Positions 1 to 13,821 of a stretch of DNA of 17,875 nt are shown piece by piece. The DNA comes from a virus. Taxonomy: Duplodnaviria > Heunggongvirae > Uroviricota > Caudoviricetes. The position numbers and the translations under genes are program-made. The stretch lies in the IMG/VR virus record IMGVR_UViG_2617271049_000014. One strand, 5' to 3'. Under the pieces are notes generated by a model. It did no database searches, was not told the DNA's origin, and saw only the letters and a program-made list of their open reading frames with translations. Position 1 is the first letter of the stretch. Each line of letters opens with the position of its first letter.

Positions 1-1236
1 CTACGATAACCGCGCATTCAACATGGCTACCTGTTCGTCGTTCATGTCATCAATCCACATACCGTAAATTTCATACACCATCTGCGCAGTTTCATGCCCC
101 ATCTGGCTGGCTATAAACGCCGGGTTCGCTCCTGCCGTCAACAGCCAGCAGGCAAAAGTATGCCGCGTATGGTACGGATTACGGCGGCGAATACCAGCAC
201 GTTTTACTGCTGCATTCCATCTCGCACCCAAACTGCTTACCGAGTAATAAGGTTTCTGTTTTCCGTTACACACTCTGGGCATGAAAACAAAATGCAGTTT
301 TTGCTTTTCGGTTCTGCCGTACTCCCGATGATAAAAAGTGATTTCGCTTTTGCGATGATGCCCGGTCAGTTTGTATTGCTCCTTCAGTGCTTCAAGAGCA
401 GGCTGCAGTAGTGTTACCGTCCGGATCCCCGCATTTGTTTTTGGGGGACCGAACATATCCAGTATCGTCAGGTTTCTTCTGACATTCACAACTCCCTTCT
501 CGAAATCCACATCCTCCCACGCCAGAGCAGCCAGTTCCCCGTGACGAAGCCCGGAGTATACGGCAAATTTCCACAAGTTCTGGCTCTGTCCTTTTTCACT
601 TTCCATTAATGCATTGAATTCTGTTTTAGATAACGGGTCAGGCTTTATTCTGTTTCTCTGTAATTTCTTTACTCCTTCAAATGGTTTGGTTGATATAAAT
701 CCCGACTGATACGCAAAACGTAACAACGAACAGAGCAGGGCGATATAGTTATCAACTGTGCGCACGGTTCTTCCTTTTTTGTTGGATCTTGGATTATCCA
801 GGTAAAGCGTTTCTCCATGCAGCAGTTCATTCCGGTAGTTTAAGATATCGCTATAACGAATATGCGATATCGGAGTACTCTCACAAATTATTATCCTGAG
901 TGTTTTTAATTGTGATTTCGTTTTCTTCATTGTGTTTGTTGTTAACTCTGTTTCTTTAATTTTTGTCCAGATATCACAAAGCTCCCCAAACGTTTTTATG
1001 ACCCTCGTTGTCACCATTTTTGCCCCAGTGCTGGACTAGGGAAAACGTCTTAAATACTCAAACTCACCGGAATTGATTTCATGAACTATCAACGCTCTTA
1101 AATTCCCGGCTTTTTTAATGTTACTGTTAGTAACCTCCCAGCCTTTCAATGTTTCCCGACATCGTTTTCCTCGAAACATGAACCAGATGCGAATGTATTT
1201 ACCTCGAATCTCGACACCTGTTGGTAATTTAGACAT
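1..1236 (-). pseudogene. intR: Tyrosine-recombinase prophage integrase (Rac IntR-type) interrupted by an in-frame TAG at 1036-1038; fragments 1..1017 (338 aa, core and catalytic domains) and 1039..1236 (66 aa, N-terminal arm-binding domain)
   Basis: ORFs 1..1017 and 1036..1236 are in the same minus-strand frame, separated only by codon 1036-1038 (plus cta = TAG on the coding strand). The read-through sequence is ...RRFP*SSTGAKMVTT.... The catalytic region shows tyrosine-recombinase motifs (HTRHTFACWLLTAGANPAFIASQMGHE). The combined span is 412 codons, matching the 411 aa I recall for K-12 IntR. ATG at 1234-1236. Confidence 0.8.
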
Positions 1237-1453: not shown

Positions 1454-1552
1454 CGCATCACCTCTGGCAGGCGCCAATGTTAGACTTAAATTGACGCCCG
1501 ATGTTGATTATTAATAATCAGCTATGAAGTTTTAATTTGAATACAATGCAAT

Positions 1553-1753
1553 TCACGAGGACTGAAGTTTCTCGCAATTAAAATTTATCAGTTTTACTTT
1601 CTGCTCTCTGGAAACGCCTGCTTCTTTTTTACCTGAGAGCATTTTTTCGCATTCTGATTTCGTTAGTTTAGATTTTGAATATCTTGTCCAGTTAGTAGGA
1701 GTGCCACCTTCCTTTTCAATAGTGGCGGTAATTTTATACATGAACACCTCCAT
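1553..1753 (-). CDS. ydaC: YdaC-like small prophage protein (DUF1187-like); start ambiguous (ATG 1751-1753 gives 66 aa, ATG 1811-1813 gives 86 aa)
   Basis: ORF 1553..1813 on the minus strand. The internal ATG at 1751-1753 (MEVFMYKITATIEK...) is preceded by GGAA and clears the ralR reading frame better; the upstream ATG has no RBS. Confidence 0.5.
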   Translation of the reverse strand: MEVFMYKITATIEKEGGTPTNWTRYSKSKLTKSECEKMLSGKKEAGVSREQKVKLINFNCEKLQSS

Positions 1754-1928
1754 TATTATTTCCAGTGGTTCGTTTATTTCATCGTTCGAGTGCTTCTTTT
1801 TCACTTCCACCATAACCGGTTCGGGATTCGCATCCGTTACACTTCGCTCGGTAATATCCTGAAATGGCTTTCACCGTTACTGATGGACAACCACAAAATG
1901 GACATGGTTTAACATTGTCATATCTCAT
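1734..1928 (-). pseudogene. ralR: Restriction-alleviation protein RalR/Lar with a premature TGA at 1779-1781 (codon 50 from the MRYD start); predicted truncated product 49 aa instead of 64 aa
   Basis: Minus-strand translation from ATG 1926-1928 gives MRYDNVKPCPFCGCPSVTVKAISGYYRAKCNGCESRTGYGGSEKEALER, then TGA, then in-frame NKRTTGNNNGGVHV and TAA at 1734-1736. The read-through is exactly 64 codons and matches my recollection of Lar (CPFCGC...CNGC zinc-ribbon-like motif). Below the 60 aa ORF-track cutoff; found by manual translation. Confidence 0.6.
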
Positions 1929-1983
1929 AATTTTTCTCATAAAAATATTTCAAGTTGGCGGTGCATTACACCGCCAGGCTGAA

Positions 1984-2793
1984 TTATTCCTCTGAATTAT
2001 CGATTACACTGTATTCCCCGGTTAATACAGAGGAATCTGCAGGATCGATTGTCAGTGGTTCCTTTTCATCCATTGATACTGCACGCTGGATCTCAATTGA
2101 TACGGGCAGATATTTGAACAGGCGACGAATAGCCGTTTTCTTTGCCATTTCTTCCCAGTGAGTTACCCACGGCCCGTTATTACCAGCTTTACTCTGGCTG
2201 CGCACCAGCTCAATCTGTTTGCGCGTCATAACTTCAAACTGAGTACCTCCGTCTTTCAGTCTTGCGACAGCATAGACGTGGGTAACAGGGGCATCTTCGT
2301 TTTCTCCTGGGCGGTGTATTAACTTTTCATCAAGGCCAAATTCGAAATTAAACTCGTCACCTTCACGGACAACACGGGCTGACAGGCTGGCGATTTGACC
2401 TGAACGGCGAGCCAGATCAATCATGCCGCGATAGCCAATGATTAGCTGAACGTTTTTTTTACCGCTCTTTTCGTTTTTATTACCAAAAGGCAGTAAATAT
2501 GCATGACCGAGGGCGCTACCGGGCTCAAGTCCGAGCTGTGAACACTGTACGATTGCACTGACAAAACTCATAGTGTCACAGTTTCCTAACGCCGGAACTT
2601 TACGAATTTCTGTGGTGGCGATACGGATCATACGTTCAGCCGTCATATGGCGTGGAAGAGCTGCTGCCAGTTGCTCTTTCATTGATGGCTGGTTAATAAA
2701 ACTAATCACGTCGTTATTTTTAATTGCTGCTGGTGCACGGTTTCCCTGAGTTTTTTGCAGATCGGCTTTTGCGATTGGTGGTTGCTTAGTCAT
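1984..2793 (-). CDS. recT: RecT recombinase (single-strand annealing protein), 269 aa
   Basis: Translation from ATG 2791-2793 ([28 protein letters not shown]...) matches RecT as I recall it. RBS AAGGAA upstream. The start overlaps the recE stop (2786-2788) by 8 nt. Confidence 0.9.
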
Positions 2794-5386
2794 TTGCATA
2801 TTCCTTAGCCCAGCGGGGCAGTGATAACGTCTTAATAGCTGGCCATTCATCGGTATTGAGGCAGTCAGCCAGGGTTCGCAGATTGCGGTGATATTCCAGC
2901 TGACCTGCCAGTTTTGCTTCTTCGCCCATCATGAAAATTTCAACCGGATAACGTCCGCATTCAATAGTTGTGCTGGCAACCAGAAAAACGAAAGTTGGCT
3001 GCACTCCAAACTGTGCTTCATAACCGTCACTGTAGAATGCATCCTGAACGTGATAGCGGTAGTCGTAATAAGCGGTTTTGAATCGTTGAATATCCGCCGT
3101 AGTTTTCACGTCCATGATCCAGTGAAATTCAGGGATAATTTTGTCCGGACGGCACCGACACAAAATTGCTGTTTCAGGATCTTCCCAGTAAATTGATGAT
3201 TCAGCGTGTCCGGCGCTTTCAACAAGCCATTGCCCCAGCGGCAAAGCCATAACGCTCTGATACATGAGTTCAATTTTCCGGCCTTCTTCGGCAGTGATAA
3301 CCGTTTTTCCTGTGCTTGCGCATTCCCTCAGAAACGCTTTCTCTTCTTCTTTTCCGGAGTTTGTCCGGCGGTTAAATTCAGGTGCTACGATAAAGCGGTT
3401 ACTGAATTCTTCCGGCTCAAGTACCCGGCAGTGGAAAGCGGTTCCTAAATCGAGCGTTTTTGTCTTTGTGGTGTCCACGGGGGCATTTTTACGCCACAAA
3501 TACAGTGCCGGAGTATCAGCAATGTCATCGAGCTGAGACTTACTGACACCGGGACCCGCGTGGTAATTCTCATTCGAAATTCCGTAATAAATACCTGGCT
3601 CTATGTCTTCTACGATTACGGGATCTGCGACTTCGCCAGTTTCATCACTGCAATCGCGATGCGGATCGCTGCCAGCATTCTCATTGTGCGGATGTTCAGC
3701 GCCTTCCATTTCCTCCGGATCATTTTCCTTAGCTTCAACCTGACTCTCTTCATCGAATGTTTCCTGGTATGTTGCGTCGCCCATCACCGCACCACAGTCA
3801 GGGCAGTTATCCCCGCCAGTCTGGCCGCAGGCATTGCAGGCTATTTCCGGTTCCTGTTGCACTACTGGCTCAGGTTGATTCATATCCGGGCTGGTTTTTT
3901 CCGTTTCTGGCTGGTTCTGGTACACACAATCGCGAGTCTGGATCCCCTTTACCCATTTCGGATCGTTCGGGTCGCTAATTCCGTCAACAAATTCACCACG
4001 TGATGCAGCAAGCAATTTATCGGCATCGACAGGATTTTTTGATGGAATGTTTTTCCGGGCTTCATGGAGTTCTGCCCGCAGTTCCTGATATTTCGCATCA
4101 ACAGAATTTACCTGTGACTGAGCATCCAGCGGCTGCGTGTCCTGATGATGTTCAGTTGCGTCCGGTTCCATTGTTTCAGCCTCTCCCTGTTCAACTGCCG
4201 TTGTTCCAGATGGTTGCGGTTTTTCTTCATCATCCTGTTTTCCTTCTTCTGTTACTCGCTGCGGCATCGGGGCAGAGGAGCGACCGCAGGCAATATCCAC
4301 GATTTCCGGATCAGGGTTGGCATGATCGGTTTCAGTCAGTACTTTGTTCAGATATTCAGTGACGTGCGCGGGGATGACCTCGATCCCAATTGGTGCTTCT
4401 TTTACGGACGCAACCACGATGGCGCGGGAATAATCCAGCCCGCCAGGCATGGTGATGAATTTGTCGCGGAAAACAGAAAAGGGCGGTTTATTTTCAGCGA
4501 TAATTTCCTCAATGCGTTTAGCGTGTGCCGGATGAAGGTTATAGATGTCCAGATCCATTGAACGGGCCAGTACGCCAGTGGCTACGTCCCGCGCCAGTGA
4601 CGTCAGATCGTGTACGAAACCTTCGCCGCGATCGGTGAGGTTTCCGCCGCCAGCATTAGCACCGGAAGCCGTGCGAGTGATGTGTGAAACACGATTACCC
4701 TTCATCCACTCTTTTGTCAGCAGTCCTCGATCGGTGTAGTCAGCGTTCAGGTATGCTTCGAAAAAAGCAGTTATCAGTCCCAGGTTTGAATTACCAGGAT
4801 TAGGGAAAACTTTGTCAGTGTCACGAACCAGTTTGTGGAGTTCGCGAATTTCCAGCGGGTCGAGCAGGCTGGTTTTGTGGGAAACAGCCAGGGCAGTAAC
4901 AGCCGGTAGTTCTTCAGCCCGAGCAATGTGTAATGCCTGGAGTCCGTCGCGTGAAACGTGCGTTACCGGTTTTTCGCTGCCGTGTTGAGCAAGCCAACGA
5001 ATGGGCAGTTCCTGGCCAGAAATTGGGAGTAGCATATTCTCCTCAATCTCAGTCATGTCTTCGCCGTTGACGTTGGTATTGCCTTGATAGTGAGCGTTGT
5101 CTGGTGCTGCTCCCGGTTTTAGTTCCCATGTCATGGAGTCTTTGCTGAGTTGATAGCGTTCACTCCAGGTAAAATCGATCTCACCTTCAGCGGGCAGGTC
5201 ATTAACGACAGGAAAATTCGTGGCAACAGCTTTAAAATAGCTGCTCAGTTTTTTACCTGACTTAACGATCAGGTAGTCCAGAGTGGCACAGGTCGATTCA
5301 AAATCGTTGCTTGCCCACAGGACGACGTCAGGTTCACCGGATGATTTTTTCGCTTTCCGTAACAGGAAGAGTGGTTTTGTGCTCAT
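2786..5386 (-). CDS. recE: Exodeoxyribonuclease VIII (RecE), 866 aa
   Basis: 866 aa ORF from ATG 5384-5386. Acidic, low-complexity N-terminal half and C-terminal nuclease domain; length and sequence consistent with Rac RecE. Coupled to recT. Confidence 0.9.
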
Positions 5387-8931: not shown

Positions 8932-9684
8932 ATGCTGTTTGTGCTTATTCTAAGCCACCGGGCAGCATCATACGGGGCAATTATGGCCGCATTACCATAC
9001 ATGCAACTGTACATAGCTGATTACCTGGCTGACACCATGCATTTGTCAGCAGAGGAGCATGGTGCGTATTTGTTGCTGATGTTCAATTACTGGCAAACAG
9101 GAAAGCCAATACCTAAAAACAGGCTGGCAAAAATTGCCCGTCTGACTAACGAGCGATGGGCTGATGTTGAACCATCCTTGCAGGAGTTTTTTTGCGATAA
9201 CGGCGAGGAATGGGTGCATCTTCGGATTGAGGAAGATCTGGCATCAGTCAGGGAAAAATTAACCAAAAAATCAGCCGCAGGAAAAGCATCTGTTCAGGCC
9301 AGAAGAAGCAGAAAGGAAGCAGATGTTCAAACAAAACAAGAGAGAAATTTAACAGGTGTTCAAACAGATGTTGAAGTGGTGTTTGAACATGATGTCAACA
9401 CAAAGGCAACTAATAAAGATACAGATAAAGATCTAAAAACAGATCCCCCCCTAAATCCCCCCCGGGGGAATCGAGGTGTCAAAAAGTTTGACCCTCTGGA
9501 TATTGCTTTGCCGAACTGGATTTCTGTCTCGCTTTGGCGTGAGTGGGTTGAATTTCGCCAGGCATTGCGAAAACCGATTCGAACGGAGCAGGGCGCTAAC
9601 GGGGCGATACGGGAGCTGGAAAAATTCCGCCAGCAGGGTTTTTCACCTGAGCAGGTGATTCGACACAGCATCGCCAATGAATAA
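8932..9684 (+). CDS. ydaU: YdaU-like replication-region protein (DUF1376-like N-terminus); start ambiguous (ATG 8932 or ATG 8983, MAALPYMQLY...)
   Basis: N-terminal motif YIADYLADTMHLSAEEHGAYLLLMFNYW. The ORF ends at 9684, shorter than the 285 aa I recall for K-12. Contains two C7 homopolymer tracts at 9445-9463. Confidence 0.65.
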   Translation: MLFVLILSHRAASYGAIMAALPYMQLYIADYLADTMHLSAEEHGAYLLLMFNYWQTGKPIPKNRLAKIARLTNERWADVEPSLQEFFCDNGEEWVHLRIEEDLASVREKLTKKSAAGKASVQARRSRKEADVQTKQERNLTGVQTDVEVVFEHDVNTKATNKDTDKDLKTDPPLNPPRGNRGVKKFDPLDIALPNWISVSLWREWVEFRQALRKPIRTEQGANGAIRELEKFRQQGFSPEQVIRHSIANE

Positions 9685-13289: not shown

Positions 13290-13821
13290 GGGCTGGTTTA
13301 TTGTATGCCAAATGATTATTAAAAAGGTTGTGTTAATAACAAAATCCGAAATAATATGCCTGCATATTTTTATCTTGCTTATATTCTGCATATTGTGCAT
13401 AGCAGGCTCATCCCTGCAATCAAAACTGTATGATGAGTATTTTTTGTTTTCCTTTTTTCCAGTCATCTGATGATGACCTGCTTCTTTTTAATCCGGATCG
13501 ACATCAGTTTTTTAAGATAATTCCTGCGAGTTATATGCATAAATGCCACAAACTCCGCATTTTATGTGGTTGGGAGTTGCCGGGCGCGCAGTGAGTTTGC
13601 TAAGAAAACTCCTGCATGGTGAATCCCCCTGTGCGGTGGGGTGATACCATTAACCTTTTCTGTCGCCGACAGGTATCACGAACATTTTGTTCACCGGGAG
13701 GCACCCGGCACCATGCACTTCAATAGATTCTCTCCACATTATGGATATTCTTTCAGAATATCCCACGCAGACTTTGTGTAAATGTTAACAAATGTGCGTT
13801 TTATTTGATCTGATTCGCTGT

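Follow-up and report, generated by a model that had tools for sequence, protein, structure and literature searches.

The present analysis concerns a stretch of DNA of 17,875 nucleotides (the window) that spans the left portion of prophage Rac between the intR stop codon and trkG, and that comes from an E. coli source of wild-type-like character. The closest complete genome is that of the calf isolate NCTC10444, which has 99.9% identity to the window and differs from it by 9 substitutions, one single-base indel, and one segment of about 4.3 kb that is absent from the window. This segment, missing at window positions 9682/9683 and corresponding to L003 11184–15482 in NCTC10444, takes in the last part of ydaU, then ydaV, genes of the DUF1627 and DUF977 families, and two hypothetical genes. 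Both the map of open reading frames and the annotations of matching genomes place ralR (lar) between recT and the rcbA, xisR, and intR genes at the ttcA end of Rac. As it stands, ralR occupies 1779..1928 on the minus strand and has 49 codons (MRYDN...EALER) followed by TGA at 1779..1781, at the codon that is Trp50 (TGG) in K-12 (plus-strand T at 1779, compared with C in K-12). Beyond this premature stop there is an untranslated 3′ remnant of the gene (1734..1778, minus strand), consisting of 14 codons, NKRTTGNNNGGVHV, and TAA, the same as in K-12, and also containing the Shine-Dalgarno sequence and start codon of rcbA.

An earlier note on this DNA, made without database searches, had read the frame as remaining open for 14 codons after the TGA, as far as a TAA at 1734–1736, and had proposed that Trp at the stop position would restore a Lar protein of 64 codons. 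Both points proved correct. Minus-strand translation of 1734–1940 gives MRKIMRYDNVKPCPFCGCPSVTVKAISGYYRAKCNGCESRTGYGGSEKEALER, a stop, the 14-residue tail and a second stop, and placing Trp at the TGA yields exactly the 64-amino-acid RalR/Lar of K-12 MG1655 (b1348, 195 nt; MRYDN...EALERWNKRTTGNNNGGVHV), which is the same as the window apart from W at the stop position and ends at the same TAA. Across 500 aligned nucleotides the window and K-12 differ at four places in total: one T fewer in the T-run upstream, between recT and ralR; a synonymous difference at Arg49 (position 1784, minus strand; CGA in the window, AGA in K-12); TGA rather than TGG at codon 50; and TGA rather than AGA in rcbA. 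With so few differences the frame is not a chance open reading frame, and the identification of the gene as ralR/lar of prophage Rac carrying a TGG to TGA change is borne out by this alignment and by a tail exactly as in the reference. An in-frame stop thus interrupts a reading frame that is intact in orthologues, and the frame downstream of it still matches those orthologues. The span originally proposed for the gene, 1734–1940, was right at its end and wrong at its start: the 64-codon K-12 protein begins at the ATG at 1928–1926, and the upstream in-frame ATG (1938..1940, minus strand; MRKIM...) is the start neither in K-12 nor in RefSeq, being used in some phage annotations, with a 53-amino-acid version in phage vB_EcoS-673R7. 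RefSeq gives the same 150-nt coding sequence as ralR (WP_001443846.1) in E2865, NCTC10444, and O157:H7 strain 3384, with no pseudogene flag. It had been considered that reference RalR proteins might themselves end at ...ALER. K-12 RalR ends ...GGVHV, and the 49-amino-acid RefSeq protein that does end in ALER is the same allele and no independent reference.

The antitoxin sRNA of the type I toxin-antitoxin pair RalR/RalA, ralA, lies on the plus strand at 1557..1735, convergent with ralR and adjoining it. It scores 225.1 bits on Rfam RF02694, for which the gathering score is 170, covers model positions 1–179 of 179, and is base-for-base as in K-12 (b4714). The core of the RalA-pairing repeat in the ralR mRNA (1791..1804, minus strand), 9 nt upstream of the TGA, is intact, as is its partner within ralA (1619..1632, plus strand, sRNA positions about 63–76), and the two form a direct repeat with 13 of 14 positions matching. 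The position of this pair agrees with the published repeat (PMC4041452), which has 16 nt, of which 11 match contiguously, and is situated 62 nt from the 5′ end of RalA and roughly 105 nt beyond the stop codon of ralR. The next gene, rcbA/ydaC (DUF1187; 1553..1741, minus strand; WP_001302840.1), has 62 codons and a Pfam match of 132 bits over positions 1–61 of 61. In K-12 the rcbA ATG overlaps the ralR stop codon (ATGTATAA), whereas in the window ralR ends 37 nt upstream of rcbA, for which its own GGAGG ribosome-binding site is visible in the sequence.

Some further variation was seen in this part of the locus. The 62-codon form of rcbA is shared by the window, E2865, NCTC10444, and Rac-SA53 and matches the DUF1187 model end to end, and K-12 has AGA in place of the TGA at window 1553–1555, giving 69 codons; the K-12 gene thus appears to be a stop-loss extension. 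The variable base of the rcbA stop, at 1555, precedes the RalA 5′ end by 2 nt. Fusion proteins of RalR and RcbA occur in some E. coli (...GGSEKEA|GVSREQKVK...; P0012 and P0015, both from NCBI). The junction in P0012 falls at the two RalA-pairing direct repeats, 172 nt apart, which suggests a deletion between the repeats that would have joined both frames and removed most of ralA; P0015 is joined at a different point.

The frequency of the premature stop was obtained with 55-mer queries in which the variable base stands at position 28 and is therefore contained in any 28-nt seed word, each query thus retrieving solely its own allele, in a searched set of 5426 complete E. coli genomes. The TGA allele was present in 310 of these genomes, all identical to the query and all CGA-TGA. 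The TGG allele was present in 1310, comprising 123 with CGA-TGG and 1187 with at least one mismatch, which were of the K-12 AGA-TGG type where checked. TGA accordingly accounts for 310 of the 1620 genomes scored at codon 50, or approximately 19%, and its carriers include O157:H7, O26, O111, and O103 strains along with various human, chicken, and cattle isolates. The 601-nt region around ralR has 100% identity in at least 40 complete genomes, the allele is also identical in three phage or prophage records, and the exact 49-amino-acid protein is found on at least 1000 contigs in a large protein collection. The ralR TGA is an established natural allele common to about 300 complete E. coli genomes. 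The earlier suggestion of sequencing error or recent point-mutational decay does not hold for ralR, given an identical TGA in so many independently finished genomes of several lineages; error or private mutation is ruled out by the 55-mer counts, the three phage records, and the nearest relative, NCTC10444. The comparison with ralR alleles from other Rac-carrying genomes, which had been proposed as a check, thus gave a divided answer: the truncation is real, and a recent private origin is not, with TGA at 310 against TGG at 1310.

Two other forms of the gene alter the same end of the protein. In variant P0002, assembled from public reads, the same codon has become Ser (LERSNKRT; 26 member sequences), and P0005 is a frameshifted form whose sequence departs beyond residue 54. 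These hint that the end of the RalR domain may be repeatedly hit.

TGG is the ancestral state, because W is retained in all of the more distant sources compared. Orthologues of ralR in Salmonella and Citrobacter retain RWNK/RR at the codon-50 site, full-length RalR of 64 amino acids with W kept is on record for E. albertii and E. marmotae, and the divergent active phage Rac-SA53 has CGA-TGG. The earlier note had allowed that the read-through frame might not be conserved in other strains; it is conserved in Salmonella and Citrobacter, and W50, N51, and R53 are near-invariant across the Lar family. The history of the haplotype that carries TGA can be partly read from pairwise comparisons. Between the window and E2865, which also carries TGA, there are 55 differences in int/xis (1–1487) and 2 in 1488–4600, that is, 55 in 1.5 kb as compared with 2 in the 3.1 kb of rcbA-ralR-recT-recE, a mosaic that points to a possible recombination breakpoint between xisR and rcbA. 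O157:H7 strain 3384 and NCTC10444 have identical RalR, RecT, XisR, and IntR proteins; identity between the two is 99.76% in the left arm of Rac and 98.53% in the adjacent ttcA-dbpA flank, the latter being a short comparison of 1.5 kb in one genome pair. These patterns fit a single origin of TGA on one recE-recT-ralR-rcbA haplotype, which may later have spread between lineages by recombination, and this haplotype is now found in about one fifth of the E. coli genomes that have this ralR segment. The immediate TGG parent haplotype was not identified in the two CGA-TGG genomes examined of the 123 (L73 and 2011C_3361), both of which belong to a divergent Rac-SA53-like lineage with a different recT.

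The effect of the stop on the protein may be judged from the conservation of the Lar family. A search of 1.84 billion representative proteins returned 1690 members at E ≤ 0.001, and nearly all among the 150 matches listed reach query residue 52–55 or further. Among 60 distant single-domain Lar proteins, C9, P10, F11, C12, C30, and C33 are invariant, and W50 (60/60), N51 (60/60), and R53 (59/60) are conserved at the level of the four cysteines; none of the 60 ends before the W-N-x-R motif, and an alignment of 48 Lar sequences gave the same picture. The stop at codon 50 therefore hits one of eight invariant residues and takes away two more conserved ones, N51 and R53. The four-cysteine zinc ribbon (C9-P-F-C12 ... 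C30-x-x-C33, residues 9–33) is present in the 49-amino-acid product, and the C-terminal W-N-x-R motif is absent from it, although still encoded after the stop. With the loss of the last 6 profile positions the score against Pfam PF14354 (Lar_restr_allev) falls from 53.5 to 39 bits, above the cut-off of 28.6, over profile positions 2–52 of 58. The product barely passes TIGR03655 (anti_R_Lar), with 40.3 against a cut-off of 39.6. Against the NCBIfam RalR equivalog NF007260 it scores 126.9 bits (cut-off 113) over positions 1–49 of 64, compared with 166 bits over positions 1–64 for K-12 RalR, and so fails a full-length match; the score above this cut-off is a likely reason that RefSeq gives the product no pseudogene flag. 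In an AlphaFold model of a full-length relative with 92% identity (mean pLDDT 77, in the mid-80s for residues 11 to 50), a beta-hairpin at 17–30 is followed by a helix at 43–54, of which the truncated product retains the first seven residues alone. A sequence search yielded no solved structure of the Lar family, its two weak matches to chitin-binding proteins looking spurious, and Foldseek gave no significant fold match, with a best E of 0.29 to generic zinc ribbons and no nuclease fold recognised. Many Lar relatives (P0050, P0055, P0071, P0156, and others) differ from the single-domain phage form in being long and having 2 to 5 Lar domains in tandem; one example has 322 amino acids and 4 matched stretches.

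King and Murray are said to have described restriction alleviation in the original lar paper, of 1995. K-12 RalR is toxic, causing a 100- to 1000-fold drop in CFU; changes at residues 14, 37, 39, 49, 51, and 52 lower this toxicity, and purified K52Q protein shows no DNA cleavage (Guo et al. 2014, PMC4041452). Residues 51 and 52, which matter for toxicity, and K52, which matters for DNase activity, all fall after the W50 stop. Judged from the sequence, the toxin and DNase activity of the 49-amino-acid RalR is very probably lost, and the conserved activity of the Lar family is probably lost as well. The function predicted to be missing from the truncated product is that of a growth-inhibiting, Mg/Ca-dependent, non-specific DNase. 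Partial activity is conceivable, because zinc ribbon 9–33 is complete. A literature search found no paper on the truncated ralR allele.

Most probably, then, the W50 nonsense form of ralR is a widespread natural toxin-null or hypomorphic allele with an orphaned antitoxin RNA. This would be gene decay of the kind usual in prophages, and the stop itself is a routine nonsense polymorphism affecting the toxin gene of a cryptic prophage. The change from TGG to TGA would leave a 49-residue product that keeps its four-Cys zinc ribbon and is predicted to lack DNase and toxin activity, and the type I pair would be disarmed with RalA, the pairing site, and rcbA unchanged. The translational coupling of ralR and rcbA that the K-12 overlap implies would be lost, with rcbA still having its GGAGG site. 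Loss of a self-toxic gene in a cryptic prophage could be neutral or mildly favourable, which would account for the persistence and spread of the allele. Against loss of function, the Pfam, TIGR03655, and RalR equivalog models all still score the truncated product above their curated cut-offs, and the tail after the stop shows no further decay in the carriers examined. The latter fits an allele that is young or a locus in which substitutions are slow to accumulate, but the intactness of the tail is also compatible with its continued use.

Continued use of the tail would be expected if the stop were leaky, with read-through of UGA by tRNA-Trp at a low rate restoring W50 and producing a toxin reduced in dose, so that both the tail and RalA would still serve a purpose. 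UGA is the leakiest stop codon in E. coli, with tRNA-Trp as its near-cognate reader, and the tail is unchanged (55-mer at 100% in 310 genomes; 601 nt at 100% in at least 40), as are RalA and its pairing site, both fully kept. We nevertheless consider this explanation unlikely. The next base in the window is A, and UGAA is a fairly efficient context for termination; natural E. coli isolates generally have a more active variant of RF2 than does K-12; and no stimulatory structure was found 3′ of the TGA (−6.2 kcal/mol, z = 0.45). Moreover, diversity at the locus is very low in TGG carriers too, which makes conservation of the tail weightless as evidence for read-through.

Alternatively, the zinc ribbon of 49 residues may retain some useful activity; it might, for instance, bind the EcoKI methylase/restriction complex or be a competitor that does no harm, and the truncation may have been kept by selection. 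The four cysteines and the beta-hairpin at 17–30 are present, the product scores above the family cut-offs, and the allele is frequent in successful lineages. This must be set against the conservation of W50, N51, and R53, as invariant as the zinc ligands, with 0 of 60 relatives ending before the motif and nearly all among the 150 matches listed extending to residue 52–55 or further. Toxicity also depends on residues 51 and 52, and DNase activity on K52 (PMC4041452), and a functional short form is in our judgment quite improbable. Similarly doubtful is a tuned toxin, in which rare read-through by tRNA-Trp would supply wild-type RalR at perhaps 1/100 of the dose and the W50 nonsense allele, with its tail, RalA, and pairing site intact, would be kept by selection for that reason; if it were true, O157:H7 and other Shiga-toxin-producing lineages could have in it a low-level, stress-gated DNase or restriction alleviation function. 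Programmed recoding of the UGA, whether to selenocysteine or through some other dedicated mechanism, has the open frame after the stop and nothing else in its favour and can be given almost no weight, there being no hairpin downstream of the UGA and the family position being an invariant Trp rather than Cys or Sec. A sequencing error or very recent private mutation in ralR has an equally negligible probability, since TGA is present in 310 finished genomes, three phage records, and NCTC10444, even though the window does contain one truly private nonsense change.

That change is an amber codon in intR, CAG to TAG, at 1036..1038 on the minus strand, with A on the plus strand at 1038 compared with G in the closest genome. 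The earlier note had described the two nonsense changes as plus-strand transitions, C to T at 1779 and G to A at 1038, which is confirmed by comparison with K-12 for the former and with the closest genome for the latter; it had further grouped them as one episode of decay, which is contradicted by their distribution. The 55-mer containing the amber had no match among the 5426 complete E. coli genomes, and in NCTC10444, at 99.9% identity, intR is intact and the ralR TGA is present. With the amber private and the ralR TGA common, the two nonsense codons differ in age and history. The amber may be a mutation of recent date or an error of sequencing and, if real, would leave this copy of Rac unable to excise with its own integrase. 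A second difference from NCTC10444 in int lies at 988, where E2865 and O157:H7 strain 3384 also differ from the window. Deliberate engineering or mutagenesis was considered because both lesions are of the C-to-T type that a cytosine base editor would produce (CAG to TAG, TGG to TGA), and was rejected: the change in ralR occurs as a natural polymorphism, and no more than 10 differences and one deletion separate the window from a wild calf isolate.

The components of this locus, namely the ralR gene, its antitoxin, and the exact TGA allele, are already known from public databases. RalR/Lar of K-12 Rac (b1348, 64 amino acids, UniProt RALR_ECOLI) occupies the same locus between recT and rcbA and has the same 49 N-terminal residues, and the window agrees with it exactly in the downstream DNA (except for the rcbA stop), in the RalA sRNA, and in the pairing repeat; among the differences, TGG to TGA at codon 50 takes away WNKRTTGNNNGGVHV. 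The 49-amino-acid WP_001443846.1, carried by O157:H7, O26, O111, NCTC10444, and others, is identical to the window in protein and DNA. From its name, [quoted passage not shown], one would take the toxin to be active, which is doubtful. More broadly, the product shares with the zinc-ribbon phage proteins of the Lar family the CPFCG...C..C ribbon and the helix but is without the W-N-x-R end. A parallel may be drawn with the decayed chromosomal hok loci of K-12, which have been disrupted by insertions or rearrangements, whereas the lesion in ralR is a single nonsense codon. In those loci the toxin is disabled and the locus and antisense RNA gene persist, as is inferred here for ralR. Inactive hok copies in E. 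coli K-12 have been mentioned in connection with RalR (PMC4041452).

If the W50 nonsense allele is toxin-null or hypomorphic, as we favour, what annotation calls the "RalR toxin" in O157:H7 and numerous further strains probably has no activity. Approximately 19% of scored genomes (310/1620), including those of O157:H7 and the main non-O157 Shiga-toxin-producing serogroups, have a RalR without residues required for activity, and, since annotation pipelines name the truncated protein as an active toxin, tallies of toxin-antitoxin systems for these pathogens probably include one too many. Findings made with RalR/RalA in K-12, on fosfomycin tolerance and DNA damage for example, call for a test in TGA lineages before they are applied there. 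The allele may also serve as a natural control for the role of RalA when its toxin target is disabled. Its significance for wider biology is small.

Two minor features of the window may be recorded. On the minus strand at 1960–1990, in the interval from recT to ralR, the recT stop is followed by a GC-rich hairpin, GGCGGTG-TAAT-GCACCGCC, which the terminator scan did not report; the T-run lies about 12 nt further on. At 13584–13770 on the plus strand there is a full-length match to the STnc100 sRNA (Rfam RF02076), with 86.6 bits against a gathering score of 47.
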